Of a stretch of DNA of 64,000 nt, positions 5,562 through 62,514 are shown in pieces; within the stretch, counting starts at the first letter, position 1, and every line of letters begins with the position of its first letter. Both the position numbers and the translations under genes were made by a program. The stretch is from Escherichia phage 4MG, in sequence record NC_022968.1; one strand, 5' to 3'. The notes below the pieces were generated by a model. It saw only the letters and a list, made by a program, of their open reading frames with translations. It was not told the origin of the DNA and did not search any database.

Positions 5562-7877
5562 TTGATCAATACAGTTGTAAAGAGTGATGGAACAGAAGTT
5601 GTGTTCGAGCCGGAACGTCTTAACAAAGCAGCAATCTTTGGTGATGACGGCAATGGCAACTGGTCACATATCTCAATGGACGCTTACAAGCGTCTGTATG
5701 ACGGTTGCACCACTCGTGAAGTAAACCAGGCATTGATCGACGCTTGTGTAAGTCGTAAAGATGAAGCTCACTCCCGCATGGCTGGACGTGTTCTCATCGG
5801 GCAGATCTACAAAGAGGCGTATGGTGGTTTTACAAAGATCCCTACGCTGTTTAACTTCTACCACTACATGACCAATATCGGCTACTGGGAAGATATGGGT
5901 TATGACTCTTTCGACCTGATTAAGCTGGAAGAAGCTATTGATCACTCGAAAGACCTGAGTTATGGTTATGCGGTTCTGAAACAGTTCCGCGATAAGTACG
6001 GTATCAAGGACAACATCAACGATGTTCTGTTTGAATCTCCGCAGATGATGTTCATGGGTATCGCAATGGCAGTAATGAAACGTATGCCGAAGGAACGCCG
6101 TATCAATGACGTTATCCAACTGTACACGTACCTGTCTGATCTGAAGATCAATGCTCCAACGCCGTACCTGAATGGTCTGCGTACTGGTCGCACTGGCTAT
6201 GCGTCATGTTGCATCATCAAAGCAGACGACACAGCTAAGAGCATCGGTGTTGCTCGTGAAGTTGCGTACACAATGACGGTTGCACAGGCCGGGATTGGGT
6301 ATTACCTGTCCTCCCGTTCAATCGGTGATGGTGTCCGTGGCAATACGATCAAACACATGGGTAAAATCCCATATTACCGTGGGATTGACTCTGGTGTGAA
6401 AGAGAACCGTCAGTCAACTCGTGGTGGCTCTGCAACAGTTTCGTTCTTGGCTATCGACCCACAAGTCGAAGACCTGATGAAGCTGAAGAACCCGCTCACA
6501 GTGACCTCTAAACGCCTGAACACAATGGATTACTCCATCGGTATTAACCAGTCGTTCATGAACCGTGTGGCTAAGAACCTTGACTGGATGCTGGTCTCTT
6601 ACAAGGATGCACCTCAGTTACACGAGGGTATGTTTAAGATGACCATGCAGGAGTTCGATGCGGAAGTTGCTCGTATCGCAGCGGATAAGAAGATCCCTAA
6701 GACTTGGGTTAAAGCCCGTGACTTAGCTCTGGAGATCATCACACAACGAGCAGAAACAGGTCGCCTGTACGTGTACTGGCCTGATGAGATGAACCGACAC
6801 ACGCCGTTCCTGGAGACAATTTACTCCTCTAACCTGTGTCAGGAAATCTGTCTGCCGACCAAGGGCTACAAAGATATGCGTAATATCTTCAACCCTGTTG
6901 CAGACGATGGTGAGGTTGCGCTATGCTTCCTGTCCTCTTTGGTTGCTGGTCGTGTTACTCCTGAAGAGTACGAGGATGTTGCTTACTACACCGTCCTGAT
7001 GATCGATAACGTTATGGATATCATGGAATATCCGTATGAGAACATGAAGCACACAGCCGAATCTCGTCGTTCGATTGGTGTTGGCCTGACTAACCTTGCT
7101 CACTACATCGCGAAACACAAAGTCGCGTATGGTTCTCCGGAAAGCAAGCAGTTGGTTCACGATCTGGCAGAACTGCACAGCTACAGCCTGCACAAGGCAA
7201 GCTTGCGACTGGCGAAAGAGCGTGGTGTGGCACCGTGGATGCATAAGACCAAATACCCTCAGGGTTGGTTGCCTATCGACACCTATAACAAGGCAGTTGA
7301 TAGTGTTGTGAAGAATCCGAGTCTGAAGCAGGACTGGGAAACTCTGCGACAGGAAATCATCAAGAATGGTGGTATTCGTAACAGTGTTCTGGAAGCGTAT
7401 ATGCCGAACGAAAGTTCCTCATTGGCTACCAACACAACCAACGGTCTGTATCCGGTACGTGATCATGTGATCTTCAAGAAATCGCCTCAAGGCTCTGTGC
7501 TGTTTATTGTGCCTGAGTATGAAGAACTGAAGGATTACTACACCTCTGCGTGGGATATCAACACAAACGACCTGATTGACATTTACGCCATCATTCAGAA
7601 GTTCGCAGGCCAGGCAATCAGTGCTGACCTCTACATCGACTACACCCAGTTGAAAGACGGGAAGATTTCGATGAAAGACCAGATTGGTTATCTGATCCGT
7701 GCGACGAAGATGGGGATGAAGACCTGGTACTACCTGAACTCGAAGGTTGGTGCTGGCGACTCCCTCACCGCAGAACTTCAGGCGAAGAAAGAAGCAGAAG
7801 AGGCCACCCGCAAGGATTATCCTCTGATCGCTGACAACTCTGTCGAAGATCCGTACTGTGAAGGTTGTGCATTGTAA
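5562..7877 (+). CDS. nrdA: ribonucleotide reductase class Ia large subunit
   Basis: 771 aa; N-terminal ATP-cone-like segment, SSNLCQEI active-site motif, C-terminal YCEGCAL Cys pair; TTG start after AAGGAG. Confidence 0.9.
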   Translation: MINTVVKSDGTEVVFEPERLNKAAIFGDDGNGNWSHISMDAYKRLYDGCTTREVNQALIDACVSRKDEAHSRMAGRVLIGQIYKEAYGGFTKIPTLFNFYHYMTNIGYWEDMGYDSFDLIKLEEAIDHSKDLSYGYAVLKQFRDKYGIKDNINDVLFESPQMMFMGIAMAVMKRMPKERRINDVIQLYTYLSDLKINAPTPYLNGLRTGRTGYASCCIIKADDTAKSIGVAREVAYTMTVAQAGIGYYLSSRSIGDGVRGNTIKHMGKIPYYRGIDSGVKENRQSTRGGSATVSFLAIDPQVEDLMKLKNPLTVTSKRLNTMDYSIGINQSFMNRVAKNLDWMLVSYKDAPQLHEGMFKMTMQEFDAEVARIAADKKIPKTWVKARDLALEIITQRAETGRLYVYWPDEMNRHTPFLETIYSSNLCQEICLPTKGYKDMRNIFNPVADDGEVALCFLSSLVAGRVTPEEYEDVAYYTVLMIDNVMDIMEYPYENMKHTAESRRSIGVGLTNLAHYIAKHKVAYGSPESKQLVHDLAELHSYSLHKASLRLAKERGVAPWMHKTKYPQGWLPIDTYNKAVDSVVKNPSLKQDWETLRQEIIKNGGIRNSVLEAYMPNESSSLATNTTNGLYPVRDHVIFKKSPQGSVLFIVPEYEELKDYYTSAWDINTNDLIDIYAIIQKFAGQAISADLYIDYTQLKDGKISMKDQIGYLIRATKMGMKTWYYLNSKVGAGDSLTAELQAKKEAEEATRKDYPLIADNSVEDPYCEGCAL

Positions 7878-7914
7878 TTCTTATGGGGCTTCGGCCCCGT
7901 TTTAGAGGGGAATA

Positions 7915-9003
7915 ATGGCTGTATTTAACGTTGAGAACACCGCTCATAAAACTGGTGACTATCCGCTGTTCTTAGGGCAGCAAATGGGGATGTATGACTC
8001 CATCAACAAAAAGTACCCGCAACTGTTCGACCTGTACAAAAAGCAGAAAGAGCAGGACTGGTCTGAAGATGAAGTTGAACTGAACCAATCCATTACCGAT
8101 TTCGCGACCTGTAGCAAATCAACCTACGATGTCATGGTCCAGACGATCATGTGGCAGTGGGAAGCCGACAGCGTTGCAGCACAGGCGATTATTTGTCTGT
8201 TCGCACCATTCATCACCAATAGTGAACTGTTTGCTATGATGATGAAGCAATCTGAGATTGAAGTTCTTCATGCTTTAACGTATTCTGATATTGTCCGTCA
8301 GTGTCTGCCAAACTCACGACAGATCATTGAAGACATTCAGAATAACCAAGCTGTTCTCGAACGCTCTGGTGTAATCGTGAAGTATATGCGTGAACTGGAA
8401 GTTCTCGGTGCAAAATACCGTATCGATCCTGAGTCCGTGGACAAAGAAGAGATTCGCCGTGGTATTCTGCGAGCGCTGTTCTCTCTGCTTGGTCTTGAAG
8501 GTATCGAGTTCATCTCCAGCTTTGCATGTACCTTTGCACTGGCAGAACAGGGTGTGTTCGTTCAGGTCGGTCAGCTTGTCCAGAAAATCATGCTGGATGA
8601 AATGCTGCACACCAAGATGGACTTCGGTGTTATTGACATTCTCCTGAAAGACCCTGTGTGGAAAGATAGTTTCTACGCTATCAAGTCAGAACTGAAGGCG
8701 ATCCTCGATGAGGTACGTACAAACGAGTATGCATGGGGTGATTACCTGTTCAGTGAAGGCCGTGCGATCATCGGGCTTAACGCTCCATTACTGAAGGACT
8801 GGACAGACTGGAACTGCGCCCCGATCTACGATTACTACGGTATCGAACGTGACTTCGAAGCACCAAAACGCGATCCTCTTCCGTTCATGGACACTTGGAT
8901 GAACCCAAGCAAACAGCAGAATGCGAATCAGGAACAAACCAACACCGATTATCGTGTCAACGCGGCAATTGATGACACTGAAGGCGAAACCTGGGATTTC
9001 TAA
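7915..9003 (+). CDS. nrdB: ribonucleotide reductase class Ia small subunit
   Basis: 362 aa directly downstream of nrdA with RBS GGGGAATA; size and position as expected for NrdB. Confidence 0.8.
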   Translation: MAVFNVENTAHKTGDYPLFLGQQMGMYDSINKKYPQLFDLYKKQKEQDWSEDEVELNQSITDFATCSKSTYDVMVQTIMWQWEADSVAAQAIICLFAPFITNSELFAMMMKQSEIEVLHALTYSDIVRQCLPNSRQIIEDIQNNQAVLERSGVIVKYMRELEVLGAKYRIDPESVDKEEIRRGILRALFSLLGLEGIEFISSFACTFALAEQGVFVQVGQLVQKIMLDEMLHTKMDFGVIDILLKDPVWKDSFYAIKSELKAILDEVRTNEYAWGDYLFSEGRAIIGLNAPLLKDWTDWNCAPIYDYYGIERDFEAPKRDPLPFMDTWMNPSKQQNANQEQTNTDYRVNAAIDDTEGETWDF

Positions 9004-9013
9004 GGAGAAAAAT

Positions 9014-9370
9014 ATGACAGTGCAAGACAACGTTCCACTTAAACCGCTACGCTTAGTGGCTTACGACCCACAGAAACTCCATCTTTTCCTTGGTGGCGAA
9101 CGGGTTAGTGGATTCATGCCATACCGTAAGATTTCCTTGCGCCGTGGTCTGAACGGCACGTTTGAAATGGAAATTTTCCTAAGTGGGGTGTCTTCTTGGG
9201 TCCCTAAGTTGCGTCAACTTTTAGGTTATGAAATGGCTATCAGTGTTCAGTATCCAAATGAATTTGCTGATAATCTTGGTTTTGAGGATGTTGGTGTCCT
9301 CTCCGGATTCGACCTGCACTTCACCAACGAAGTTCCGGAAATTGTGTTCTACTTTAAAAATAAGGATTGA
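9014..9370 (+). CDS. hypothetical protein
   Basis: Track ORF 8921-9370 trimmed to ATG after TAAGGAGAAAAAT. Confidence 0.5.
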   Translation: MTVQDNVPLKPLRLVAYDPQKLHLFLGGERVSGFMPYRKISLRRGLNGTFEMEIFLSGVSSWVPKLRQLLGYEMAISVQYPNEFADNLGFEDVGVLSGFDLHFTNEVPEIVFYFKNKD

Positions 9371-9371
9371 T

Positions 9372-9638
9372 ATGAGTATCAAAGACAATACCTTCGTGAT
9401 CTATGGCAAAGATAGCTGCCCTCACTGTGTTCGTGCGAAAGAATTCGCAAAGTCAAAAGGTCTTGACTTCCTGTACATGACCCTTGACAAGAACTATACA
9501 AAGGAAGAACTGGTTGCCAAATGTGCTCCAGTGATCCCGACAACCGTCCCACGCGTATTTATGGAAGTAGACGGTACTGAGCGTTATGTAGGGACCGCAG
9601 ATGAGTTTATCGCATTTGTGAAATCTCATAACATCTGA
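9372..9638 (+). CDS. glutaredoxin/NrdH-like redoxin
   Basis: CPHC active-site motif in an 88 aa protein next to nrdAB; trimmed start. Confidence 0.65.
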   Translation: MSIKDNTFVIYGKDSCPHCVRAKEFAKSKGLDFLYMTLDKNYTKEELVAKCAPVIPTTVPRVFMEVDGTERYVGTADEFIAFVKSHNI

Positions 9639-9716
9639 TTGACAGTCGTCTAAAAACCATATAAGATTAACTAAGCCCATCCTCATGTTGTTGGTGGGCC
9701 ACAAAGGAGAAAAGAA

Positions 9717-9857
9717 TGAGCAAACGTACTCTGCGTAAGGCATATCAAAAGGAACTGGCACTGGAACTGCGTGGTAAAAAGCGTAAGACTAAACGTGCCA
9801 CTGAAGACGAACTCCTGCAACTGGTAGCTGACGCTGCTGCCCGTAGCACATACTGAG
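9717..9857 (+). CDS. small basic protein (46 aa)
   Basis: Below track cutoff; ATG preceded by AAAGGAGAAAAGA. Confidence 0.35.
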
Positions 9858-9864
9858 GTAACCC

Positions 9865-10290
9865 ATGACTGACGTTATCAATGATGAAGGACAAACATTC
9901 GTCCCAATGCCACAATCAGAGCTTGACACTATTCTGTTTGGTGACCACGAGCAACTGGCCCGTGACTTTGTTGGTCTTGTATTCCCACGACTGATTAATC
10001 AGTTCAGTGAACAGACTCAATACCAGATCGAGGCAATGCGCCAGATGAAGTCTAGTTCAAAAGACCCGGCTTTCGAAAAGGAACTGAATGCCGCTCAGGT
10101 TCGCCTGAAAAAGGCTCTTTCCGAAGAGGTTATGCAAAAAGTTATGGATAAGATGGTCTATCTCCTGAAAGAAGAGCTTGCGCCACATGAGCTGGCCTAT
10201 GCTATCTACCAGGAACGTATTACCATCAAGATCTCTGGGATTGCCGCCCAACTTGAAACGGCTTTTGAAGAGGCGCTAGGAGAGGGTTAA
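9865..10290 (+). CDS. hypothetical protein
   Basis: ORF with RBS-like GAGGTAACCC upstream. Confidence 0.5.
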   Translation: MTDVINDEGQTFVPMPQSELDTILFGDHEQLARDFVGLVFPRLINQFSEQTQYQIEAMRQMKSSSKDPAFEKELNAAQVRLKKALSEEVMQKVMDKMVYLLKEELAPHELAYAIYQERITIKISGIAAQLETAFEEALGEG

Positions 10291-10309
10291 TCCGTAAGGA
10301 GGTCTTCTT

Positions 10310-10864
10310 TTGAAACTAACGCTTGAACAACTCAACAAGATTTTTCCAGTAGGTGCATCCGCTGGGCGTAACGCAAAGTTCATTGATGCACTGAACGACT
10401 TGTTTGAGAAGGGTGGTATTAATACTGTCAACCGTATCGCCGGATTCCTCTCCCAAATTGGTGTGGAGTCTGCCGAGTTCCGTTACGTCAAGGAGCTTGG
10501 GAAGGATTCGTACTTTGATAAGTATGATACTGGCTCTATCGCAAAGCGTCTTGGTAACACCCCAGAGAAGGATGGGGATGGGGCCAAGTACAAGGGGAGA
10601 GGCCTGATTCAGGTAACCGGACTTGCAAACTACAAAGCTTGCGGTAAGGCACTTGGTCTGGACCTCGTTAACCACCCAGAATTGCTTGAACAGCCTAAGT
10701 ATGCAGTTGCCAGCGCTGGTTGGTATTGGAACATGAGAAACATCAACGCCGCTTGCGATGCTGATGATATCGTTAAGATTACCAAGCTGGTAAACGGTGG
10801 TACAAACCACCTGGCCGAGCGCACAGCCTATTACAAAAAGGCAAAATCTGTTCTAACCTCGTAA
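10310..10864 (+). CDS. glycoside hydrolase family 19 lysozyme-like endolysin
   Basis: KYKGRGLIQVTGLANYKACG matches the GH19 catalytic signature (GRGxIQ[LV]T..NY); TTG start after TAAGGAGG. Confidence 0.7.
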   Translation: MKLTLEQLNKIFPVGASAGRNAKFIDALNDLFEKGGINTVNRIAGFLSQIGVESAEFRYVKELGKDSYFDKYDTGSIAKRLGNTPEKDGDGAKYKGRGLIQVTGLANYKACGKALGLDLVNHPELLEQPKYAVASAGWYWNMRNINAACDADDIVKITKLVNGGTNHLAERTAYYKKAKSVLTS

Positions 10865-10875
10865 GGAGAACCAAT

Positions 10876-11676
10876 ATGGGAAGAAGCAAAGAGGCTCGTG
10901 CAACAAAACTGAGCGCCCGTCAACAGCAACGTGCTGAACGTCAGGCCGCTAGTCAGGCAAAGCACCACCCGAAATTCGATGAGGAACGAAAAAGCGCACC
11001 ACCGCTAGTTGCTCTGAATGAAAAGCAGCAGGATTACCTTCACAAGTTGCAGACATGCAACATTATCATCGCGAAGGGGATCTTCGGAACAGGTAAAACC
11101 TACCTTGCATCCGCTCATGCTGCCGACTTGCTGCGTAGAAACGAACTCGACAAGATCATTGTCGCTCGTCCATACGTGCAGACGGGTAAAACCTCCGGCT
11201 TCAAACCGGGTACTTCACTGGAAAAGCTGTTCCCTTACGTCCGAAATATGCTGGATACCATCCGTAAGCGTATGGGTGATGGGGCTTACTACAATGCCCT
11301 GAAGGACGGCTTGAATGGGCGTATCGAAGTTCAGGAACTGGAAAGCATCCGTGGTCGTTCATTCGACGAAAAGAGCTTCCTGCTGATCGACGAAGCGCAG
11401 CAGAGCACCCCGGAAGAAATGCTGAGTATCATCACTCGTATTTCTGATAACTGTACGCTCGTAGTCATGGGTGATGCAAGTCAGAAAGATATTCATGGTC
11501 AGTCAGGCCTTGAATGGTTGATCGAGTTCACTCAGCGTCACAATCTTGCAGGCGTGGGATCTGTTTCCTTTGATGACCCGAATGAGGATATCGTTCGTGG
11601 TGGTATGGTTCGCGACATCGCTCTTGGCCTCATGGCTGACCGCGAAGAGAAGCGCTATACCCCGATGGCTTCTTAA
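10876..11676 (+). CDS. phoH: PhoH-like ATPase
   Basis: Walker A GIFGTGKTYLA, Walker B LLIDEAQ, typical PhoH size. Confidence 0.8.
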   Translation: MGRSKEARATKLSARQQQRAERQAASQAKHHPKFDEERKSAPPLVALNEKQQDYLHKLQTCNIIIAKGIFGTGKTYLASAHAADLLRRNELDKIIVARPYVQTGKTSGFKPGTSLEKLFPYVRNMLDTIRKRMGDGAYYNALKDGLNGRIEVQELESIRGRSFDEKSFLLIDEAQQSTPEEMLSIITRISDNCTLVVMGDASQKDIHGQSGLEWLIEFTQRHNLAGVGSVSFDDPNEDIVRGGMVRDIALGLMADREEKRYTPMAS

Positions 11677-11686
11677 CAGGAGGATT

Positions 11687-12319
11687 ATGGCATATTACAC
11701 TGGGGTAGGATCTCGCGAAACACCCCCAGAGGTTATCAGCGTCATGGAAGACGCTGCTTTCCGATTAGCAAGACTTGGATTCACACTGCGAAGTGGAAAA
11801 GCCGGGGGTGCTGATGAGGCATTTCAGGTAGGAATGCAAAAATATTACGAATCTCTTGACAATGGAAAACAAGAAGAGTATCGTACACGCTTGGCAGAGA
11901 TTTACATACCGTGGGACGGGTTTGCAGCAGATAATGACAAGCTCTGGGATTATTGGGATTATCCTTTGAGTTATGTCGATTACCTAATGCCGGAGCAAAA
12001 AGTGGTCAGGGACTCACTGGTCGAGGAAATTCATCCTAATTTCGAGGCACTTAAGAAGAAGCGTGGTGCTTTTGCACTTCACTCTCGCAACGTGCATCAG
12101 GTTTTGGGTGCAAATATTCTTGAGCCGCGCCCCTCTGCGTTTTGCCTGTACTATGCATCCGAGGATAAGCATGGTAATCCGAAAGGTGGTACGGCTACTG
12201 CGGTAAATCTTGCCAAAAAATATGGCGTGAGAACGCTTAATCTAAACACTCCGGAGCGCTTGGCCTTACTTGAGCAGTTCCTGACCAATCTTGAGAGGAA
12301 AAGAGGTGTCCAGGTTTAG
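11687..12319 (+). CDS. Rossmann-like nucleotide-binding protein (SLOG/DprA-like), function unknown
   Basis: N-terminal YTGVGSRETP ... SGKAGGADEAF pattern; trimmed to ATG after CAGGAGG. Confidence 0.4.
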   Translation: MAYYTGVGSRETPPEVISVMEDAAFRLARLGFTLRSGKAGGADEAFQVGMQKYYESLDNGKQEEYRTRLAEIYIPWDGFAADNDKLWDYWDYPLSYVDYLMPEQKVVRDSLVEEIHPNFEALKKKRGAFALHSRNVHQVLGANILEPRPSAFCLYYASEDKHGNPKGGTATAVNLAKKYGVRTLNLNTPERLALLEQFLTNLERKRGVQV

Positions 12320-12614
12320 AGATAAGCTGAATCAGTCCTATTGTCTCGTGAAATATGACAAAAAGGGCTGGGTTCTGGCTAAAAAGACAGGAAAACGGAT
12401 TTATGTCACTGAAAGTAATGGTGAAATCCGCTATATCTGCACCACAGATGATACTGACCAGTTCAAACATCTTACCGAGTCCTTGGAATATGAGTCAAGG
12501 AAGACCCTTGTAGTGGGTGATGTGGTGAGATTGGACAATTTTGGGCCATATCATGTGGTTGATTCCGGTTACCGTGGGGATGACGGTGAAGTGAAATATC
12601 TGATAGCTCGATAG
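12291..12614 (+). CDS. hypothetical protein
   Basis: ORF. Confidence 0.45.
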   Translation: MRGKEVSRFRDKLNQSYCLVKYDKKGWVLAKKTGKRIYVTESNGEIRYICTTDDTDQFKHLTESLEYESRKTLVVGDVVRLDNFGPYHVVDSGYRGDDGEVKYLIAR

Positions 12615-12621
12615 GAGGAGT

Positions 12622-13104
12622 ATGACAGTTAGTATTCATGGGGTTATCTCCCATCGAAAACTGATGGAGTTGAAGAATTGTGGGGTTGTTTCTCCGGGGC
12701 TGTTTGATGCTGAAGCGGAAAGCCTCTTCAATTTTTATCGTAAGGTTGTGGCTCAGTCTCTGTATGAGATGAACGATGGGTTCTTTACCCGAATGATTTA
12801 TAACACTGCCGCAGCAGAACGCGATGCACGGTGGATGTTCCCGGATCGTCGTGATTTGCTGAATCACCTGATCTACCTGGATGGTAAATCCAAGTATGTG
12901 ACTGTCGAAAAGGAAGAACTTGACAAGTTCACAATGCTGCACACCGCAGCCGTAGCCTCTGAAAGGGCGAGAAAAGTTCTCGTGACATTCAAGTACAGCG
13001 ACCAGGTACTTGTCGATGACGAAACAGGGTATTACATCGACTGGCTGATGAAGAATGCATACATTCTGAAAGGCTATATTGCAAACGCTCGTGAGGAGGA
13101 TTAA
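12622..13104 (+). CDS. hypothetical protein
   Basis: ORF after TAGGAGGAGT. Confidence 0.5.
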   Translation: MTVSIHGVISHRKLMELKNCGVVSPGLFDAEAESLFNFYRKVVAQSLYEMNDGFFTRMIYNTAAAERDARWMFPDRRDLLNHLIYLDGKSKYVTVEKEELDKFTMLHTAAVASERARKVLVTFKYSDQVLVDDETGYYIDWLMKNAYILKGYIANAREED

Positions 13105-14821: not shown

Positions 14822-14826
14822 ATTAA

Positions 14827-14854
14827 CCCGCTTCGGCGGGTTTTTTCGTTTTTG
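14827..14854 (+). terminator. rho-independent terminator
   Basis: CCCGCTTCGGCGGG hairpin followed by TTTTTTCGTTTTTG. Confidence 0.8.
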
Positions 14855-14857
14855 TGC

Positions 14858-14886
14858 TTGACATCAATTTTACCGAGGATTATTAT
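14858..14886 (+). promoter_or_regulatory. sigma70-type promoter
   Basis: TTGACA - 17 nt - TATTAT, about 20 nt upstream of the AAGGAG/ATG of the next gene. Confidence 0.7.
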
Positions 14887-16475: not shown

Positions 16476-16738
16476 AAGTAACCGCGTTTTTAAAGTACGA
16501 TTTATACCCGTACTACATTGTTCTTGAAGGGGAACTCCAAGAGAACTTTGATGTGAAAACCAGTTGTGGAACCTATTCCCACACAAAAGTTCTGCGTGTT
16601 AAGCCTTTCTCTGAGTACGATTTACACTCTAAAATACACAGAGATATCAAACAACAGCATGATCGTTGTCTTCGTAAATTAAAAGTTGACTTGTTGAAGC
16701 AAAATGGTATAGACTTCATCAACACAGAAAATTTCTAA
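16472..16738 (+). CDS. hypothetical protein
   Basis: ATGA overlap. Confidence 0.45.
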   Translation: MKVTAFLKYDLYPYYIVLEGELQENFDVKTSCGTYSHTKVLRVKPFSEYDLHSKIHRDIKQQHDRCLRKLKVDLLKQNGIDFINTENF

Positions 16739-16747
16739 GGAGAAAAG

Positions 16748-18001
16748 ATGAAAGTATATCTGGTAGGTGGCGCAGTACGTGACGGTTTGCTTGGTCGTGA
16801 AGTTCATGACCGTGACTACGTGGTTGTGGGTGCAACGCACGAAGAAATGATCAATAAAGGTTTCACCCAGGTTGGCGCTGCTTTTCCAGTATACCTGCAT
16901 CCTGAAACCAACGAAGAGTATGCTTTGGCCCGTACCGAGCGCAAGACGGGCAACGGTCATACAGACTTCGAAACATTCTTCAGCCCGGACGTGACTTTGG
17001 TTGAGGATTTGTCTCGTAGAGACCTGACGATCAACGCTATGGCTAAAGATTTGGAAACAGGAGAGATCATCGACCCGTTTGGTGGTCAGTATGATATCGA
17101 AAAGAAAATTCTGCGTCATACAACGCTGGCATTCCTTGACGATCCTCTCCGCATCCTGCGTGTGTACCGATTCAAAGCACAACTGGGCAAAGACTGGGAA
17201 ATCCATGCCGACACTAAAGCTCTGTGCTTTAATAACCGTTATGGGCTGTCCCACATCAGCGGTGAGCGTAAGTGGAAAGAGATGGAGAAAGCCCTTGGTT
17301 CTGACAACTTCCGGGCATATGCTGAAGCAATGGCAGAGCTTGGTGAGTTGCCAGAACTGGATGCCCTGCGTGGAGTAGCACAACCACCAGAACACCACCC
17401 GGAAGGTGATGCTTTCGTTCATACACTGCTGTGTTTGGATGTGGCTGACCTTTACGAGGCTAACCCGTATACCAAATTTGCAGTGCTGTGCCATGACTTC
17501 GGTAAGGCGATCACTTTCCGTAAATACGGCAATCTGATCGGGCATGAAGAGGCAGGTCTGGAACCAGTACGTACATTGTGTGAGCGTATCCGTGTGCCTA
17601 ACGACTTCCGTGATGTTGCACTGTACGTAACAGAGCACCACACCCGTGTTCACTGTATCGCCCCTCGTGGCGGCAATAAGGGTGCAAAGCCACGGTCACT
17701 GATGAAACTGTTTGAGGCAGCAGGTAATGTGGCGAGCGCCAAAACAGCGATGAAGGTTGGTTCTTTGGCAGATGCGTGTTTCTGCGATGCAAAAGGTCGT
17801 GGTCCAACAAAAATTGCAGAGCCGTATCCGCAGGGTTATGTTCTGATGGATGCTTTCCGTTGCATGAAGGCTGTTGACACTAAGGTGATCTCTGCTGAGT
17901 GCCTTGCAAAAGGTAAGAGCGGTATCGAGATTGGTGAAGCTATTCGTGTTGCACGTATTGATGCTATCCGTAGCATCACCCAGCGTGAAATTAAGTGGTA
18001 G
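16748..18001 (+). CDS. cca: CCA-adding tRNA nucleotidyltransferase with HD domain
   Basis: MKVYLVGGAVRDGLLGREVHDRDYVVVG ... RRDLTINAMA ... HD-domain residues; close resemblance to E. coli Cca recalled from memory. Confidence 0.85.
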   Translation: MKVYLVGGAVRDGLLGREVHDRDYVVVGATHEEMINKGFTQVGAAFPVYLHPETNEEYALARTERKTGNGHTDFETFFSPDVTLVEDLSRRDLTINAMAKDLETGEIIDPFGGQYDIEKKILRHTTLAFLDDPLRILRVYRFKAQLGKDWEIHADTKALCFNNRYGLSHISGERKWKEMEKALGSDNFRAYAEAMAELGELPELDALRGVAQPPEHHPEGDAFVHTLLCLDVADLYEANPYTKFAVLCHDFGKAITFRKYGNLIGHEEAGLEPVRTLCERIRVPNDFRDVALYVTEHHTRVHCIAPRGGNKGAKPRSLMKLFEAAGNVASAKTAMKVGSLADACFCDAKGRGPTKIAEPYPQGYVLMDAFRCMKAVDTKVISAECLAKGKSGIEIGEAIRVARIDAIRSITQREIKW

Positions 18002-20209: not shown

Positions 20210-20547
20210 AAGACGTTCGTGGTGAAACCCTGAATGTTGGTGATGAGGTTTATATCTACTGGGGGTATAACCAATTGCGCCCAGCCGTGGTAAAGCAGAT
20301 CACTAAAAACAAGGCCAAAGTGTTTTGTGACGGGTCACTCTCCAAATGGAAGTCAGGTGAGTGCATGATCAAGGCAGAAGAACCAACAGGCTACTACCCT
20401 GACGAGGTGATCATGCTTCTTGAAGAGATTCGTCGTATTCGGGATGAGGCTCCGATGAATAAAGAGGGTCTTCCAACAAAACAACTGTGCCAGGGGCTTC
20501 TGAATTTTTGGGATATGAAGCGCCCAATGAAACTGGTTACCTCTTAA
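20206..20547 (+). CDS. hypothetical protein
   Basis: ATGA overlap. Confidence 0.45.
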   Translation: MKDVRGETLNVGDEVYIYWGYNQLRPAVVKQITKNKAKVFCDGSLSKWKSGECMIKAEEPTGYYPDEVIMLLEEIRRIRDEAPMNKEGLPTKQLCQGLLNFWDMKRPMKLVTS

Positions 20548-20555
20548 GGAGAGAT

Positions 20556-21629
20556 ATGAAAACTTTTGATATGATGCGATGCTACTCAGGTAGCCTCGCG
20601 TATGGGACTAATCTCCCAACATCGGATGTTGATATCCGTGGTCTGTTCTGTGCGGAACCTAAGTTCATCCGTACTCCATTCTTCAATATCAAAGAGCAGA
20701 CGCTCGCTGATGAAGAGGATGGTAAGATCTACGAACTGACAAACTTCATGAAGTTGTTTGTGGAGATGAACCCCAACATCATCGAACTGATGTTTGTTGA
20801 TGAAAAAGATATCATTTCCAGTTCAGACGCTTACGCATACCTGCGTACAATGGCACCTGAGCTTATGTCAAGTAAGGTTGCATTTAGCTTCTCTGGTTAT
20901 GCTATGGCACAGCTTAAGCGTATCCGTGGTCATGATAAGTGGATCACCAATCCGCAACCGGAGGAAAAGCCAACGCAAAAGGACTTCTTCCGTTTAGTCC
21001 ACAACTACAGTGAGCACCCTTTCCTTGCTGGTGTAATTAAGCACGAACGCTTCATGGAGGCCATGACAAATCTGAACGATATGTGCGTCCTCGTTCCTTA
21101 TGGCAACGACATCTATGGTGTGATGGAGAACTTCAGTAGCTCAGGTATGTTCAACGCAGATGGTTCTATTCGTCATGTTGACTACCAGCAACTGTCTGAT
21201 ACAGACAAGCGCCGGAAACCTGTGTTCATTGTAAAGTATCTGGCAGAAGAGCACAAACAGGCAAAGGAGAAGCACCGTAACTACTGGGCCTGGAAGCAGA
21301 ACCGTAACGAAGTGCGTCATCAGCTTGAAGTGAACTTTGGGTACGACACCAAACACGCCATGCATCTTGTACGTCTGATGCGCATGGCTGAAGAGATCCT
21401 GACTGATGGAAAGGTTCTGGTGAAGCGTCCTGACGCTCAAGAACTCTTAGATATCCGTGGTGGCAAGTGGACTCTTGACGAGCTTCTTAAATGGGCTGAT
21501 GAAAAAGATCATTACATTCGCGAAGTTCTGTACAAAAAGACAGACCTGCCGAAGTACACCGATCTTGAGTTAGCTTCTCGTGTTCTCATGACAGCGCAGG
21601 ATATCTGCTGGGCGAGTATGGATGTTTGA
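20556..21629 (+). CDS. Pol-beta superfamily nucleotidyltransferase (minimal NTase or CD-NTase-like)
   Basis: SGSLAYGTNLPTSDVDIRG = GS-x9-13-DxD nucleotidyltransferase motif; RBS TAAGGAGAG. Confidence 0.55.
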   Translation: MKTFDMMRCYSGSLAYGTNLPTSDVDIRGLFCAEPKFIRTPFFNIKEQTLADEEDGKIYELTNFMKLFVEMNPNIIELMFVDEKDIISSSDAYAYLRTMAPELMSSKVAFSFSGYAMAQLKRIRGHDKWITNPQPEEKPTQKDFFRLVHNYSEHPFLAGVIKHERFMEAMTNLNDMCVLVPYGNDIYGVMENFSSSGMFNADGSIRHVDYQQLSDTDKRRKPVFIVKYLAEEHKQAKEKHRNYWAWKQNRNEVRHQLEVNFGYDTKHAMHLVRLMRMAEEILTDGKVLVKRPDAQELLDIRGGKWTLDELLKWADEKDHYIREVLYKKTDLPKYTDLELASRVLMTAQDICWASMDV

Positions 21630-51645: not shown

Positions 51646-52577
51646 TACACCACCTTGTTGAGCATCGCAGCAATCTTAGGCAGGCCCATCTCTGTCTGAA
51701 TGATCAGTTGGGTCAGCGCCTTTTCCATTTTCTTCGACACAATGATGAAGTTGTCTTTAGCAAAACCAACTTTAAGGTCCATAATCAGGATCGCCTTTGG
51801 TTCACCAGACAGCTTCTCTCCGGTCAGAGAGCAGGTATTGCGAATATACTTCGCTTTGAACTGTGCATAGGTCACAGAAACGTTCATACCAGCGTCGGAG
51901 AATGTCTTGCAGTAGTTGGCGTAGGCCAGCGCTACAGCAACATCATCAGGCAGTTTTTGCTTCTCTTCCGCTGGTGCTGTAGTTTCTTCTGCAACCGGAG
52001 GCTGTTTATGGAAGTGCTGTTCAGCAAGTTCCATTGCGGAAGACGCGGTGCGCTCTTTAGGTTCCGGGTGACGTGGAAAATCTTCTGCAACAACAGGTTT
52101 TTCTACAACTTCTGAAGTATCTACTGGCATTTCTTTCTCCTCTTTTGGAATATATTTGGTTTTCAGTTTTTCCATGTGCTCTTTTGACATGTTGAGCATC
52201 ATTGCTTGTACGATTTCACGGTCAAGTGGCTCAATTATAGTGATTGCCGTCTTCTTGTCAACCAAACAATCTTTCAGTTCGTTAGCACGTTGAAGAACAA
52301 CACAGACGTTACCACGTACATAACCCTTCTTATCGTTGATACGCTCAACGGTTGGGTACAGCGGGTCTTTTTCACCATGCACAGAGCGCATACTGAAGTC
52401 CATATTGGTATAGTCACATTTACCCATACCAAGAAGCTTTTCACCCATCATGAACCAGTCATCAAGGGTCAGACTGAATTCCAGGCCACGTTTCTTTGTG
52501 CGTTCAACCTTTTTACGGTAACGTTCCTCTAGACTTTTGATCTCACTGGCGGTAAATTTCTTTTTCACATCAAACAT
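51645..52577 (-). CDS. hypothetical protein with degenerate HNH_3-like segment
   Basis: ERINDKKGYVRGNVCVVLQRANELK resembles the C-terminal half of HNH_3; minus-strand AAGGAG RBS. Confidence 0.45.
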   Translation of the reverse strand: MFDVKKKFTASEIKSLEERYRKKVERTKKRGLEFSLTLDDWFMMGEKLLGMGKCDYTNMDFSMRSVHGEKDPLYPTVERINDKKGYVRGNVCVVLQRANELKDCLVDKKTAITIIEPLDREIVQAMMLNMSKEHMEKLKTKYIPKEEKEMPVDTSEVVEKPVVAEDFPRHPEPKERTASSAMELAEQHFHKQPPVAEETTAPAEEKQKLPDDVAVALAYANYCKTFSDAGMNVSVTYAQFKAKYIRNTCSLTGEKLSGEPKAILIMDLKVGFAKDNFIIVSKKMEKALTQLIIQTEMGLPKIAAMLNKVV

Positions 52578-52647
52578 TTTCTACTCCTTGGGTTATTCCC
52601 GTTCTTGTTGGGAGAATTATCCTGGATTGTGTCCCCACTGTCAACAC

Positions 52648-52676
52648 TTGATTTCAAAATTTTTACAGTGTATGCT
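52648..52676 (+). promoter_or_regulatory. sigma70-type promoter
   Basis: TTGATT - 17 nt - TATGCT, then GAGGAA RBS and ATG at 52708. Confidence 0.55.
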
Positions 52677-52707
52677 TTCTATACATTCAGTAAGCAGAGG
52701 AATAAAA

Positions 52708-53739
52708 ATGAGTAAGTTTAACGTTGATGTGCGACCCGTGTCTGTCCCAAAAGTGACTGCGGATATAGACTGGAGCCTGTTGAAAGATGACCAAACAACC
52801 CGTGACATGCTGGAACAGCTACAGAGAGAAAGGGAGTATCGACAAATGGCAATGATAGGTATGTGGGAAAACCCACGAGCCAGTAAGGATGAGTTTATCT
52901 CCCGTTTGCAACCCAAGATGGTGGAGGATAATCCTTTCGTAGAACTGCTCAGAGAACTTGTTGATAGGGTTGATGTCAGAGATGGCCCATATTCATGGTT
53001 ATGGGGGACATATGAAGACCGCCGTGGTGGTATGGACAGACGCCAAATGGCAAGATTAGAAGTAGAAATAAGAGAAAGAAACCCTTCCTCAAGCCCTTTT
53101 GAGCGCGCGCCGGGTGAGGATGTATCACGGGGTAGTGTTATCGCTTCTATTCGTGGTCATGGTGATGGTGCAGCGCTTATTGATAGTCATAACTGGCGTT
53201 TGTCTTCACGCACAAGGAACTTTCTCTCTATCTTGAAGCCACTGATCCGGCAAATGGGCCGCTGTGAGCCTGACCTGGTGATAAAGGCAGATTTCAGAAG
53301 GTATAGTGCCAGTACATCGAGCTTTATGCAGCCGCGCTCTGATATCGACCTGCTGGGTATTTCTTTAACCATTGGCGACCTGCTTGTATATTGTGATTTC
53401 AGAGATCGTGATAATTTTGATGTACACTGCAATCACATTGGACACAGTGTTTTCCATTTGCGTGACCAAGGTGTAAGGGTGCAGAATGCTCGTGAGGCGA
53501 TGTTGATTTGCAATAAATATGAAACGCTCTTCACTTTTAAGTGGGACGAACGTCTGAGAAACATGATGGCAGGTGAATCTCCAACGGAAGATGAACTGCT
53601 AATGATGGAAATGGCTGGTTATAAAGATGAATTTTGGCTTGACAAGATAGATTACTTTGATACACTCAAGATCAAACCTTTTAACATGATGGAGCAATCA
53701 CGATGGTACGAACAAACAATTCCTCGATTCCAGTTTTAA
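52708..53739 (+). CDS. hypothetical protein
   Basis: 343 aa, trimmed start. Confidence 0.5.
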   Translation: MSKFNVDVRPVSVPKVTADIDWSLLKDDQTTRDMLEQLQREREYRQMAMIGMWENPRASKDEFISRLQPKMVEDNPFVELLRELVDRVDVRDGPYSWLWGTYEDRRGGMDRRQMARLEVEIRERNPSSSPFERAPGEDVSRGSVIASIRGHGDGAALIDSHNWRLSSRTRNFLSILKPLIRQMGRCEPDLVIKADFRRYSASTSSFMQPRSDIDLLGISLTIGDLLVYCDFRDRDNFDVHCNHIGHSVFHLRDQGVRVQNAREAMLICNKYETLFTFKWDERLRNMMAGESPTEDELLMMEMAGYKDEFWLDKIDYFDTLKIKPFNMMEQSRWYEQTIPRFQF

Positions 53740-54212
53740 CCCCGGCACAAGAACTCGCTTTAGCGATTAAAATTGCAGCAGAAGGCCACCTGAATCAGAA
53801 AGATAAGGGTGGTAACCCGTATATTCTTCACCCGCTGAAGGTGATGCACTACCTGAAGACCGATGATTTTCAGCTTATGGCTATCGCCGCGCTTCATGAT
53901 GTGGTTGAAGACACCGATGTTACCGCTTCGGATCTGGTAATGCTGGGCTTCTCGAATCGTGTGAAGGATGCTGTGGTTCTTCTGACGAAAACCCCTAATC
54001 AGACACCGGAAGAGTATTTTAACCGCCTAGCCCAAAACTACGATGCGGTACGTGTGAAGCTTGCAGACCTGCGCCATAACTCTGATGTTCGTCGTCTGAA
54101 AGGGCTGACGGATAAAGATTTGTTGCGTGTTCGTAAGTATCACGACATGTACCTTCGTCTGACAAAGATGAAAGAACACCATGAAGCAATCAATATGTTG
54201 TCGCAACTATGA
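53703..54212 (+). CDS. HD-domain (p)ppGpp hydrolase-like protein (small alarmone hydrolase)
   Basis: HLNQKDKGGNPYILHP ... AALHDVVEDT ... LADLRHN match the RelA/SpoT hydrolase motifs. Confidence 0.6.
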   Translation: MVRTNNSSIPVLTPAQELALAIKIAAEGHLNQKDKGGNPYILHPLKVMHYLKTDDFQLMAIAALHDVVEDTDVTASDLVMLGFSNRVKDAVVLLTKTPNQTPEEYFNRLAQNYDAVRVKLADLRHNSDVRRLKGLTDKDLLRVRKYHDMYLRLTKMKEHHEAINMLSQL

Positions 54213-59219: not shown

Positions 59220-59732
59220 ATGACGATTGAATTAAAACTGGACACAGCGGCAGTAGAAAAGCTTTTCCCAGAGGGGACAGAACTGCGTGTAAACCTACAA
59301 CAATCTGTGGTGAACAATATCGCCAAGCGGATTCTTGATCGCGATATCTCTGTTCGCCTGGAAACCTTGATCCGTACCCATGTGGCGCATGAGTGCGGCA
59401 TGATGGACCTGAATACCCTGGTCAAGAATGCTCTTGATGCACACCTTGAGAAAACTGGCTGGCATGATCACCGTCTTAAGGATAGCACCACCTCACAGAT
59501 CCGTGAATTGGTTAAGAAAAAGGTGCAACAGCTTGCGGATTCAGAAATGCAAAAGATCATTAACGATACCCTTTCTCGTTCTACCAATACGATGAAGGAT
59601 ACCCTTGATCGCCATATCGACAATGCGCTTCAGGATGTGGAAAAACACATCGCTACACGCCTTAACCAGAAATTCGCTGCGGTTGTTGATGCTGCGATTG
59701 CTGCTAAACTCGGTATGGAGGTGAAGAAATGA
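59220..59732 (+). CDS. hypothetical protein
   Basis: RBS GAGGAGTTGTAT. Confidence 0.5.
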   Translation: MTIELKLDTAAVEKLFPEGTELRVNLQQSVVNNIAKRILDRDISVRLETLIRTHVAHECGMMDLNTLVKNALDAHLEKTGWHDHRLKDSTTSQIRELVKKKVQQLADSEMQKIINDTLSRSTNTMKDTLDRHIDNALQDVEKHIATRLNQKFAAVVDAAIAAKLGMEVKK

Positions 59733-60223
59733 GCTTCAAATACAAAGTTGGTGACCTGATCGAAGCGGTCAAGAATGGTGAGGTTAATGTTTTTGCGCAT
59801 GGCTGCAACTGTTTTTGCACAATGGGTAGCGGTATCGCACCACTGATCAAAGAAGCGTTTCCGAAAATGTACGCTGCGGATCTGAAGACCGAGAAGGGTG
59901 ATAAGCATAAGCTTGGAACCTACACAATGGCCTTCCTGAAGGACGGCGAAGCTGCTGGTTTTAATCTGTATTCGCAATATGGCTATAATCGCCGTAAACA
60001 GGGCCTCAGGGACCTCGATTACAATGCCCTGTATGATTCGTTGGATTTGATGAAGAAGGCCTTACAGAGCTTTACAGACGGTTCTGTGGCTGACTACAAA
60101 ATCGGCTTCCCTAAAATCGGTGCTGGTCTTGCAGGCGGCGACTGGAACGTCATCGAAGCGATGATCAAGTCCGTGTTTTGGGATTGCGATGTCACAATCT
60201 ACATCCTTCCGGAGAAAAAGTGA
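59729..60223 (+). CDS. macro domain protein (ADP-ribose binding or hydrolysing)
   Basis: VFAHGCNCFCTMGSGIAPLI and IGFPKIGAGLAGGDW match the two glycine-rich macro-domain motifs; ATGA overlap. Confidence 0.55.
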   Translation: MSFKYKVGDLIEAVKNGEVNVFAHGCNCFCTMGSGIAPLIKEAFPKMYAADLKTEKGDKHKLGTYTMAFLKDGEAAGFNLYSQYGYNRRKQGLRDLDYNALYDSLDLMKKALQSFTDGSVADYKIGFPKIGAGLAGGDWNVIEAMIKSVFWDCDVTIYILPEKK

Positions 60224-61088: not shown

Positions 61089-61475
61089 ATGACTATGAGT
61101 AAATCTTTGGGCCAAACTACCCCTGCACAGCCTACAGAAATTGGGGGTAAGCGTTTCGCTGGTATCCTGCGTGATGTGGAACCGTTCTTCGGTTTCGGTA
61201 CGCATAAAGAGGTTCGTTGCATCTATGGTATCTTGGGCCGTGACCACAAAAACCGTGGCTTTGATGGTGGGCCGGTCCGTACTTCTGTTGTGCAGGATCT
61301 GATTGTCCATGAAGGTGATATTTATGCTATCACTATGAATAGCGCCTATCTGCTGGAAAGCGTACAGCTTCAGCATTTTATCGCCAGCGATATTTGGCGT
61401 GATGACATTGCCAAGCTCATTGCTCTCGCAATGATTGGTCAGGCAGCAAAGAATGAGGAGTCTAAAATTGACTAA
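61089..61475 (+). CDS. hypothetical protein
   Basis: ORF. Confidence 0.45.
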   Translation: MTMSKSLGQTTPAQPTEIGGKRFAGILRDVEPFFGFGTHKEVRCIYGILGRDHKNRGFDGGPVRTSVVQDLIVHEGDIYAITMNSAYLLESVQLQHFIASDIWRDDIAKLIALAMIGQAAKNEESKID

Positions 61476-62514
61476 ACCTATTAAGTACCCAAGCACCAAC
61501 CAGTTCCGTCAGGTTATTAAGGCGATTCATGATCGCCTGACCTTTGATGGTATTGATGAGAATGGAAACATCAAGCGCAAGGTTGTTGCGCCAGATCAGT
61601 ACCTGATCCCGTACATCGGTACAGTTAAGATCCACGGGACCAACGGCAGCATTGTCTTCCACTCTGAAGATGAGGTTGTTTTCCAGTCCAAAGAGCGTAT
61701 CGTTCAGGTTGGGGATGACAACAACGGCTTTGCTGCGTTCATGACCCGTAAAGATACCAAAGAGCTTCTGGAGCAGGTCAAGTACCTGTGTGAATGCAAT
61801 GACACACCATTCTCTTTCCCAGTTGAGATCGCTGGTGAGTGGGCTGGTCGCGGTATCCAGAAAGGCGTTGCTGTAAGCGAAGTTGAGCCGTTCTTCACGA
61901 TCTTCCGTGTTGCGGTTGGTCGCAATGAAGAGGGAAATTCCCTGAACTGGATGCCACCAAACTTCCAGTACGGCATTGGCCTGCCACAACAGCGGATCTT
62001 CAGTGTTCTTGACTTTGGTTTCTGGTCTGTGCAGATCCCATTCAACGAACCTGAACTGGTACAGAACGATCTGACCACACTGACGATGCAGGTTGAAGCC
62101 TCCTGCCCGGTTGGGAAACACTTCGGCGTTGAAGGTGTTGGTGAAGGCATTGTGTGGTCTCCTCTGCAACCTGAACTGGCTAAAGACTCCGGTCTGTGGT
62201 TCAAGGTGAAAGGCGAGAAGCACTCTGTGTCTAAGGTGAAAACTCTGGCTGAAGTTGACCCAGTACGTCTTCAGAACATGCGTGAGTTTGTTGACTACGC
62301 TGTGACTGAGAATCGCCTTGAGCAGGCTCTTGGTGAGGTTGGTCTCGACCAAACCAAGATCGGTGAGTTCATCGCATGGGTTAGTCGTGACATCAACAAG
62401 GAAGAAGGCGATGTTCTGGAAGCTAACTCCCTGACCATGAAGGATGTTGCGAAGTTCATCAGTAACAAATCTCGTGGCTGGTACATGCAGAAACTGAACG
62501 AGAGTCCACTGTAA
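61468..62514 (+). CDS. Rnl2-family RNA ligase
   Basis: VKIHGTNGSIV (motif I KxHGxN) and AGEWAGRGIQKG parallel T4 Rnl2 EKIHGTNFSL and FGEFAGPGIQKN as recalled; TTG start after GAGGAG. Confidence 0.6.
   Translation: MTKPIKYPSTNQFRQVIKAIHDRLTFDGIDENGNIKRKVVAPDQYLIPYIGTVKIHGTNGSIVFHSEDEVVFQSKERIVQVGDDNNGFAAFMTRKDTKELLEQVKYLCECNDTPFSFPVEIAGEWAGRGIQKGVAVSEVEPFFTIFRVAVGRNEEGNSLNWMPPNFQYGIGLPQQRIFSVLDFGFWSVQIPFNEPELVQNDLTTLTMQVEASCPVGKHFGVEGVGEGIVWSPLQPELAKDSGLWFKVKGEKHSVSKVKTLAEVDPVRLQNMREFVDYAVTENRLEQALGEVGLDQTKIGEFIAWVSRDINKEEGDVLEANSLTMKDVAKFISNKSRGWYMQKLNESPL

Follow-up and report, generated by a model that had tools for sequence, protein, structure and literature searches.

The cca gene and its context

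The gene dealt with here, cca, is located in the window, which is the whole 64-kb stretch of phage DNA that was analysed. It is an open reading frame of 417 aa that starts with ATG and occupies positions 16748..18001 on the + strand. Direct reading of the sequence locates a Shine-Dalgarno motif (AGGAG) at 16738..16742 on the same strand, 5 nt before the ATG and overlapping the stop codon of an upstream 88-aa ORF. Another long frame, of 324 aa, runs antisense within cca (16679..17653, - strand). This frame shows no homology, all of it being confined to the + strand product, and it was rejected as a by-product of the coding frame.

The region upstream of the gene was inspected by means of consensus scans. 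A hairpin followed by U residues, similar to an intrinsic terminator, is located at 14825-14842 (+), and a near-consensus sigma-70 promoter (TTGACA-17-TATTAT) at 14858-14886 (+). Between this promoter and cca the scan detected no terminator as good as the one at 14825-14842. Transcription of the unit to which cca belongs probably begins here, and the promoter sequence suggests that the host RNA polymerase carries it out. As a whole, the window is a segment of a Vequintavirinae (Seunavirus-like) myovirus, colinear with Enterobacter phage EC152, Cronobacter phage GAP31 and Escherichia phage LNA4. These three are its nearest records in the phage collection searched, with DNA identities of about 88%, and the window corresponds approximately to positions 2.0-67.1 kb of GAP31, on the opposite strand.

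Several protein families recognise the cca product. Three Pfam domains were found, all of them above the gathering score: the PolyA_pol head (7.5e-21), PolyA_pol_RNAbd and HD. The best NCBIfam model is the multifunctional CCA addition/repair protein (NF008137/PRK10885; E 8e-123), which is matched over its full length (protein 1-413, model 1-406 of 409) with a score of 410.2 bits against the equivalog cutoff of 451; by NCBI's rule the product is classed as a divergent relative of NF008137 and not as an equivalog. PHROG 2244 (tRNA nucleotidyltransferase) is matched at E 1.3e-145 and 487 bits over profile positions 3-390 of 392. On these grounds the protein is predicted to be a class II CCA-adding enzyme of full length, with an HD phosphohydrolase domain in its C-terminal part, and the 417-aa CCA-adding enzyme that an earlier note on this DNA had placed at 16748-18001 is borne out by Pfam, NCBIfam and PHROG 2244. 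The gene belongs to a known phage family, of which it is an ordinary member that relatives already have annotated. Its homologues are present in 468 phage records, at full length in 203 of these, where they are usually annotated as tRNA nucleotidyltransferase, and the identity at the protein level is 96.9% with GAP31 and LNA4, 87% with SPLA5a, 75% with Klebsiella phages and 51% with phiTE, whose protein of 440 aa has all the motifs described below.

Catalytic motifs and selection

The Pol-beta-type nucleotidyltransferase head comprises residues 3-123 (16754..17116, +; Pfam PF01743, 75 bits vs a cutoff of 23) and contains the elements GGAVRD...D21xD23, the ARTERK loop and R90-R91-D92. The nucleotide-templating element of motif D, D131-D132-P-L-R135-I-L-R138, was located by homologue alignment at 17138..17161 (+), and the core of the HD phosphohydrolase domain corresponds to residues 224-300 (17417..17647, +; Pfam PF01966, 24.3 bits vs a cutoff of 22).

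Invariant positions were defined by aligning the protein with homologues from phages and cells, the most distant of which are about 45% identical. In motif A (GGxVRD...DxD) they are G7-D12 and the metal-binding carboxylates D21 and D23; in the loop for A76 addition, R62-T-E-R65, G68 and G70; in motif B (RRD, ribose discrimination), R90-R91-D92. Other positions counted with the head domain are D109, P110, G113, D116 and E173-R174, and in motif D, the template for CTP and ATP, D132, R135 and R138 are invariant. As for the HD domain, H217-P-E219, D221, H225, H249-D250, H266, H298, H302 and D347 do not vary, the complete set of HD metal ligands being present (H217, H249-D250, H266, H298, H302 and D347). 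The sole notable deviation is D131, by which motif D begins with DDxxR instead of the usual EDxxR. It is a conservative change: at this place the enzymes of the near phage clade have D, and those of distant phages and of cells have E.

Compared with the cca gene of GAP31, dN/dS is 0.031 (dN 0.021, dS 0.67), so cca is under strong purifying selection. A decaying or non-functional gene is ruled out by this dN/dS of 0.03 together with the invariant active sites. The reading best supported by the sequence is that the enzyme works in CCA addition and repair and that its phosphohydrolase domain is active, the enzymatic specificity being one that we infer from the motifs.

tRNA genes of the phage

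Within the 64-kb window ARAGORN detected no tRNA genes, and neither did Rfam at gathering score. No exact copy of the T-loop consensus GGTTCGANTCC is present in the window, and three sites match it with one mismatch, vs 3.7 expected from shuffled sequence. The earlier note had also recognised no tRNA here, and in this respect it agrees with the three scans. This does not carry over to the whole genome: the window covers about 43% of the genome (64 kb of ~149 kb), and around 27 tRNA genes are located 17-24 kb to its left.

The rest of the genome was reached through IMG/VR. An exact 46-mer taken from the start of the window matches a single contig, IMGVR_UViG_2595698946_000001 (148,567 bp), and window and contig show 0 mismatches in 3,484 overlapping bases. 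The region of this contig that holds the array (52,681-73,043) was recovered with a protein probe from inside the tRNA array of GAP31. In this stretch ARAGORN predicts 25 tRNAs forming a 6.7-kb array (stretch positions 6166-12865), and Rfam gives 22 tRNA matches at gathering score, two of which had been missed by ARAGORN. A sensitive re-scan of the stretch between 10.6 and 12.1 kb confirmed the ARAGORN calls for Ser-GCU, His-GUG and an odd 70-nt tRNA-like gene, and a divergent tRNA-Gly(UCC)-like gene was recognised in the array by eye only. Adding up ARAGORN, Rfam and manual inspection, the array consists of about 27-28 tRNA genes for nearly all amino acids.

The colinearity with GAP31 places the window at approximately 84.0-148.0 kb of the contig and the array at approximately 60.2-66.9 kb, which puts the array on the strand opposite to cca, at a distance of about 34-40 kb. 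In GAP31, 26 tRNA genes are annotated at 84.3-90.7 kb; ARAGORN predicts 25 at the same place, and the program found no tRNA in the other two thirds of that genome; the placement of the array in PVP-SE1 is like that in GAP31. The apparent lack of phage tRNAs is thus an artefact of the window, because the array sits outside it. A tRNA cluster elsewhere in the genome, which the earlier note had named as the observation that would speak against its view, is what ARAGORN and Rfam show on the IMG/VR contig. It is important to note that a feature absent from 64 kb, less than half of a 149-kb genome, is not thereby absent from the genome, and the puzzle of a Cca without tRNAs is gone once the rest of the genome is considered.

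CCA ends of the phage tRNA genes

The tRNA genes of E. coli encode the CCA end, and E. coli Cca is a repair enzyme. In the source genome of the window, N73-CCA is encoded in the DNA for 23 of the 25 tRNAs predicted by ARAGORN, the frequency expected by chance being 1/64. The proportions are similar in four related loci: GAP31 has 23/25, a PVP-SE1-type contig 24/25, and two other contigs have 23/24 and 22/24. Since 23 of the 25 phage genes encode CCA, its de novo synthesis is not generally needed.

Two genes depart from this pattern. One is the 70-nt tRNA-like gene, which has no CCA and is flagged as a pseudogene in GAP31. The other one is tRNA-Ser(GCU), a genuine tRNA according to Rfam (38.8 bits), in which the acceptor stem is followed by U-C-C, with no A76, and then directly by G+1 of the next predicted tRNA. 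Because this gene ends in U-C-C, A76 must be added after transcription, either by the phage enzyme or by that of the host.

Related to this, the spacers of the array are mostly of 4-9 nt, with one of 1 nt and one of 0 nt (ARAGORN coordinates). Such tight packing would mean that the 3' ends arise when the transcript is cut at the following tRNA and then trimmed by exonucleases, a situation in which the repair of CCA ends would be useful.

RNA-repair genes in the window and tRNA-poor relatives

Besides cca, the window contains three other genes whose products are related to RNA repair. The nearest one encodes a nucleotidyltransferase of the RlaP family (RNA-ligase-associated Pol-beta) at 20487..21629 (+; Pfam PF10127, 1.9e-13, 51 bits vs a cutoff of 23; PHROG 388). 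It lies 2.5 kb downstream of cca, in a neighbourhood that is conserved in GAP31 and phiTE, and its true start is probably internal to the ORF. An Rnl2-type RNA ligase is encoded at 61435..62514 (+; Pfam RNA_ligase, 1.9e-8; PHROG 548 at 4.5e-78), its homologue in GAP31 being annotated as RnlB. A macro-domain protein, annotated as a phosphatase in relatives, is found at 59729..60223 (+; Pfam Macro, 4e-5, 24 bits vs a cutoff of 22; PHROG 335). The GAP31 genome also has an annotated Rnl1 and an annotated metallophosphoesterase outside the region equivalent to the window. RlaP enzymes add one or two nucleotides onto the 3'-OH ends of damaged RNAs, which are then ligated (preprint PMC12776372), and Iyer et al. 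2021 (PMC7824862) already count the CCA-adding enzyme, together with RlaP and RNA ligases, among the means by which large phages repair RNA.

The number of tRNA genes varies widely among relatives that possess the enzyme. In phiTE, three tRNAs are predicted by ARAGORN (two of them annotated) at the syntenic site. Across the genus Certrevirus the counts range from 1 to 18, and CB7, with one tRNA, retains its tRNA nucleotidyltransferase (PMC7344957).

Proposed role of the enzyme

With high probability, then, the window encodes a functional phage Cca, transmitted vertically within the Vequintavirinae, that keeps the 3' ends of phage and host tRNAs chargeable. The enzyme would have been inherited vertically within these myoviruses, and during infection its most likely task would be the maintenance of chargeable tRNA 3' ends: C74, C75 or A76, when lost from tRNAs nibbled by exonucleases or cut, would be added again, the HD domain clearing 2',3'-cyclic or 3'-phosphate ends beforehand. 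As substrates during infection we infer both the phage's own ~27 tRNAs and, equally, the tRNAs of the host. The activity may consist in end repair or completion rather than in de novo CCA synthesis, because almost all the phage tRNA genes encode CCA, tRNA-Ser(GCU) being the clear exception. Given that CCA is encoded and that the enzyme is kept in relatives poor in tRNAs, the phage Cca is more aptly regarded as a factor that repairs 3' ends throughout the tRNA pool than as an accessory of maturation. Since the host has its own Cca, the sequence alone does not account for what the phage gains from a second one.

The earlier note had proposed the repair of host tRNAs as the role of the enzyme. 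The repair itself is plausible in view of the 23 of 25 genes that encode CCA, of phiTE with its three tRNAs and of the RNA-repair genes in the window; the premise of a phage without tRNAs did not hold, and the cuts in anticodon loops that were part of that proposal are beyond Cca itself. A repair role is the published, prevailing view and is not new: phage Cca has been described as a function for 3'-CCA synthesis or repair (PMC7344957, PMC7824862). As a discovery it carries little weight, the orthologue being already annotated in dozens of related phages.

A narrower proposal, which must be regarded as rather unlikely, is that in this phage lineage Cca serves primarily in counter-defence. It would mainly restore host tRNAs hit at their acceptor ends by defence or toxin systems, and together with RlaP, Rnl1/Rnl2 and the macro-domain protein it would form a suite acting on host and phage tRNAs attacked at acceptor ends or anticodon loops, the phage tRNAs being incidental. 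If this were true, it would explain why cca remains intact in relatives with one to three tRNA genes, such as phiTE with its motif-complete enzyme and CB7. The CCA ends already encoded by the phage tRNA genes fit this proposal, and so do the intact HD domain, the conserved synteny with RlaP, the presence of Rnl2 and the macro-domain protein in the window and of Rnl1 and the metallophosphoesterase elsewhere in GAP31, the biochemistry of RlaP (PMC12776372) and the framing of phage Cca as RNA repair by comparative genomics (PMC7824862). Nevertheless, general housekeeping repair fits the same data, the genes are spread over 45 kb with no operon, and Cca itself is incapable of repairing anticodon-loop cuts. 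Moreover, the literature search on defence systems that attack CCA ends yielded one unrelated AbiEii preprint and nothing that connects phage Cca with such a system.

It is improbable, and more so than a function in counter-defence, that the enzyme is purely an accessory of maturation, that is to say, that the phage tRNAs need CCA de novo and Cca exists to mature them. The large array in the genome, the Ser-GCU gene without A76 and the tRNA-like gene without any CCA point in this direction, as does the fact that phage Cca genes are generally found in large phages, many of which have tRNA sets. However, de novo synthesis would be needed for at most two of the 25 genes, and relatives with one to three tRNAs keep cca.

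Specificity of the enzyme

A different specificity, be it that of a poly(A) polymerase or that of an enzyme adding only CC or only A, is very improbable. The class II family includes enzymes of each of these kinds that are alike in sequence, D replaces E in the first position of motif D, and the score lies under the equivalog cutoff; these points could be taken as signs of another activity. Nevertheless, the scores of the corresponding models are far from their cutoffs: the PcnB models reach 66 bits vs 305.65 (TIGR01942) and 35 vs 702 (NF008634), and the A-adding model 45 vs 1440. The templating residues D132 and R135 are, besides, invariant. The loop between motifs A and B is needed for A76 addition and is shortened in CC-adding enzymes. 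In the phage protein this loop aligns without gaps with that of E. coli Cca, has the same length and conserves ARTERKxGxG. A poly(A) polymerase, A-adding or CC-adding identity was rejected on the model scores and the conservation of the loop.

Origin of the phage enzyme

Overall, the phage protein is 43% identical to E. coli Cca. The identity is unevenly distributed: 62% in residues 1-140, 37% in residues 141-210, 40% in the HD domain and 26% at the C-terminus, so the earlier note was right in that the likeness is strongest in the N-terminal part (62% vs 26-40% beyond it). It had also read this likeness as a sign that the gene came fairly recently from an enterobacterial host. Where a catalytic domain is conserved in all such enzymes, however, a high identity in it is uninformative on the age of a transfer, and the remaining comparisons go against a recent date.

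At the DNA level, the match to E. coli cca is marginal (~200 nt only, 67% identity, E 2e-4), and at the protein level E. coli Cca ranks 138th among 282 retrieved homologues. The first named cellular proteins in a large search are from Pseudoalteromonas, with 48% identity. When 1.8 billion cluster representatives were searched exhaustively, only two clusters gave more than 50% identity, both of them phage-like in appearance, and the remainder are at or below 50%; among the ten best cellular-looking clusters no donor lineage was found, all being tiny metagenomic clusters. The composition of the gene is that of the phage: GC3 is 47% in phage cca, 51 +/- 4% in 13 other phage ORFs and 58% in E. coli cca, and the RSCU of phage cca correlates with that of phage genes at r = 0.85 vs 0.38 with E. 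coli cca.

In a distance tree, the phage sequences form one monophyletic deep clade and E. coli Cca is found elsewhere. This is a neighbour-joining tree with no bootstrap and a star-like base, and it supports that the phage enzymes are not nested near E. coli, with no specific origin being indicated. The divergence inside the phage clade (to about 50%) is similar to that between E. coli and Pseudoalteromonas (48%), i.e. to the split of gammaproteobacterial orders. Related to this, GAP31 and the Certrevirus phiTE have a common gene order: ClpP, DNA methyltransferase, small ORFs, cca, membrane proteins and a second nucleotidyltransferase. As this neighbourhood is conserved in both phages, cca is older than the split of the genera Seunavirus and Certrevirus. 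From the tree and the protein comparisons, the phage enzymes are seen as a deep clade of their own across the Vequintavirinae and the gene as a long-established copy.

The recent capture of an enterobacterial cca from the host, to which the 62% identity of the head domain and the E. coli-like architecture with its HD domain might lend some colour, retains almost no probability and is already refuted, at the level testable from sequence, by the low overall identity and short DNA match, the rank of E. coli Cca, the lack of representatives above 50% identity outside phage-like clusters, the phage-like GC3 and codon usage, the deep phage clade and the synteny in both genera.

Comparison with known systems

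The closest counterparts are the tRNA nucleotidyltransferases of other Vequintavirinae (PVP-SE1 gp159, GAP31_120, phiTE_136 and CB7_179; PHROG 2244), which are orthologues at the same genomic position and from which the protein shows no substantive difference.

With E. coli Cca it shares the length, the organisation in three parts (Pol-beta head, RNA-binding neck/body and HD) and all the catalytic motifs, and both would act in end repair on tRNAs whose genes already encode CCA. The two differ in that the phage protein is virus-encoded, is 43% identical, does not reach the equivalog cutoff, begins motif D with DDxxR and not EDxxR, and has six extra residues around 305-314, an insertion that is common to the near phage clade. 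The closest solved structure is that determined for the CCA-adding enzyme of Bacillus stearothermophilus (PDB 1MIV), with which head and neck can be aligned (E 3.8e-22, residues 3-207, motifs A-E); the Bacillus enzyme, however, has no HD domain, and an alignment can be made for the N-terminal half only.

Finally, the presence of an RlaP nucleotidyltransferase, an Rnl2-type ligase, a macro-domain protein and Cca in one phage resembles the RNA-repair toolkits known from phages, such as T4 Pnkp/Rnl1 and the sets of jumbo phages. With respect to the T4-type set (Pnkp and RNA ligase), the scan of ten window proteins recognised no Pnkp; the Rnl2-type ligase and RlaP are present. Unlike those toolkits, the genes are here dispersed, and they belong to a genome of 149 kb, which is not that of a jumbo phage.

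Sequence features of Cca and the surroundings of its gene

The class II CCA-adding enzyme (Cca) encoded by cca (window 16748-18001, + strand) departs from the usual sequence at two points. In motif D (window 17138-17143, residues 131-132) it has DDPLR where EDPLR is usual; the DD form also marks the clade nearest to the 4MG enzyme (Seunavirus and Klebsiella phages), whereas the ED form is found in cellular Ccas and in the more distant phage enzymes. Besides, a six-residue insertion (APRGGNKGAK region, window ~17660-17690, residues ~305-314) lies past the last histidines of the HD domain and is common to the nearer phage Ccas; it has no counterpart in E. coli and Pseudoalteromonas Cca or in phage-like sequences that are further removed.

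A putative transcription-unit boundary, judged by its sequence, lies some 1.9 kb before cca (window 14825-14886, + strand): a strong hairpin resembling a terminator, with an 11/12 match to a sigma-70 promoter directly 3' of it. An antisense ORF of 324 aa (window 16679-17653, - strand), contained within cca, is probably a by-product of coding-strand composition.

An RNA-repair nucleotidyltransferase of the RlaP family (window 20487-21629, + strand) is encoded 2.5 kb downstream of cca, and the same gene surroundings recur in the close relative GAP31 and in the more distant phiTE. The phiTE homologue is divided in its annotation into three successive CDS (phiTE_130-132), which suggests that it is disrupted. 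Further downstream, a 400-aa protein classified by PHROGs as "thymidylate kinase" (window 52537-53739, + strand) gave no Pfam match, and its gene overlaps the start of that encoding a small HD-domain phosphohydrolase (window 53703-54212, + strand).

The tRNA array

The tRNA array lies outside the window in the source contig (L006). At L006 10546-10620, in the position occupied by tRNA-Gly in GAP31, there is a divergent tRNA-Gly(UCC)-like sequence with the acceptor GCGGTTA/TAACCGC, the anticodon loop CTTCCAA and the T-arm GGGTTCGATTCCC, followed by T-CCA; ARAGORN did not call it, nor did Rfam, whether run with the gathering cutoff or with sensitive filters in a second scan. A 70-nt tRNA-like gene (L006 10711-10780; Rfam tRNA, 38 bits) has an "anticodon" call of two bases and no encoded CCA. 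Its GAP31 counterpart is annotated as a pseudo "tRNA-OTHER", and because the gene is kept in both genomes it may not be junk. The reduced tRNA locus of phiTE (three tRNAs) adjoins an annotated pseudo-ToxI ncRNA (L019 10714-10772), an anti-abortive-infection element. Across the subfamily, the locus of the tRNA array may be a hotspot of counter-defence RNAs.

The same array contains tRNA-Ser(GCU) and a predicted tRNA-Ser(UGA) in tandem (L006 11315-11496), the downstream member being detected by Rfam with 34 bits only, as tRNA-Sec-like. The tRNA-Ser(GCU) gene ends in U73-C-C and G+1 of the next gene follows with zero spacer; A76 is therefore not gene-encoded, and, judging from this sequence, completion with A76 would require Cca. 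The layout of the pair is identical in GAP31, and the arrangement is similar to that of the dimeric tRNA precursors of T4.
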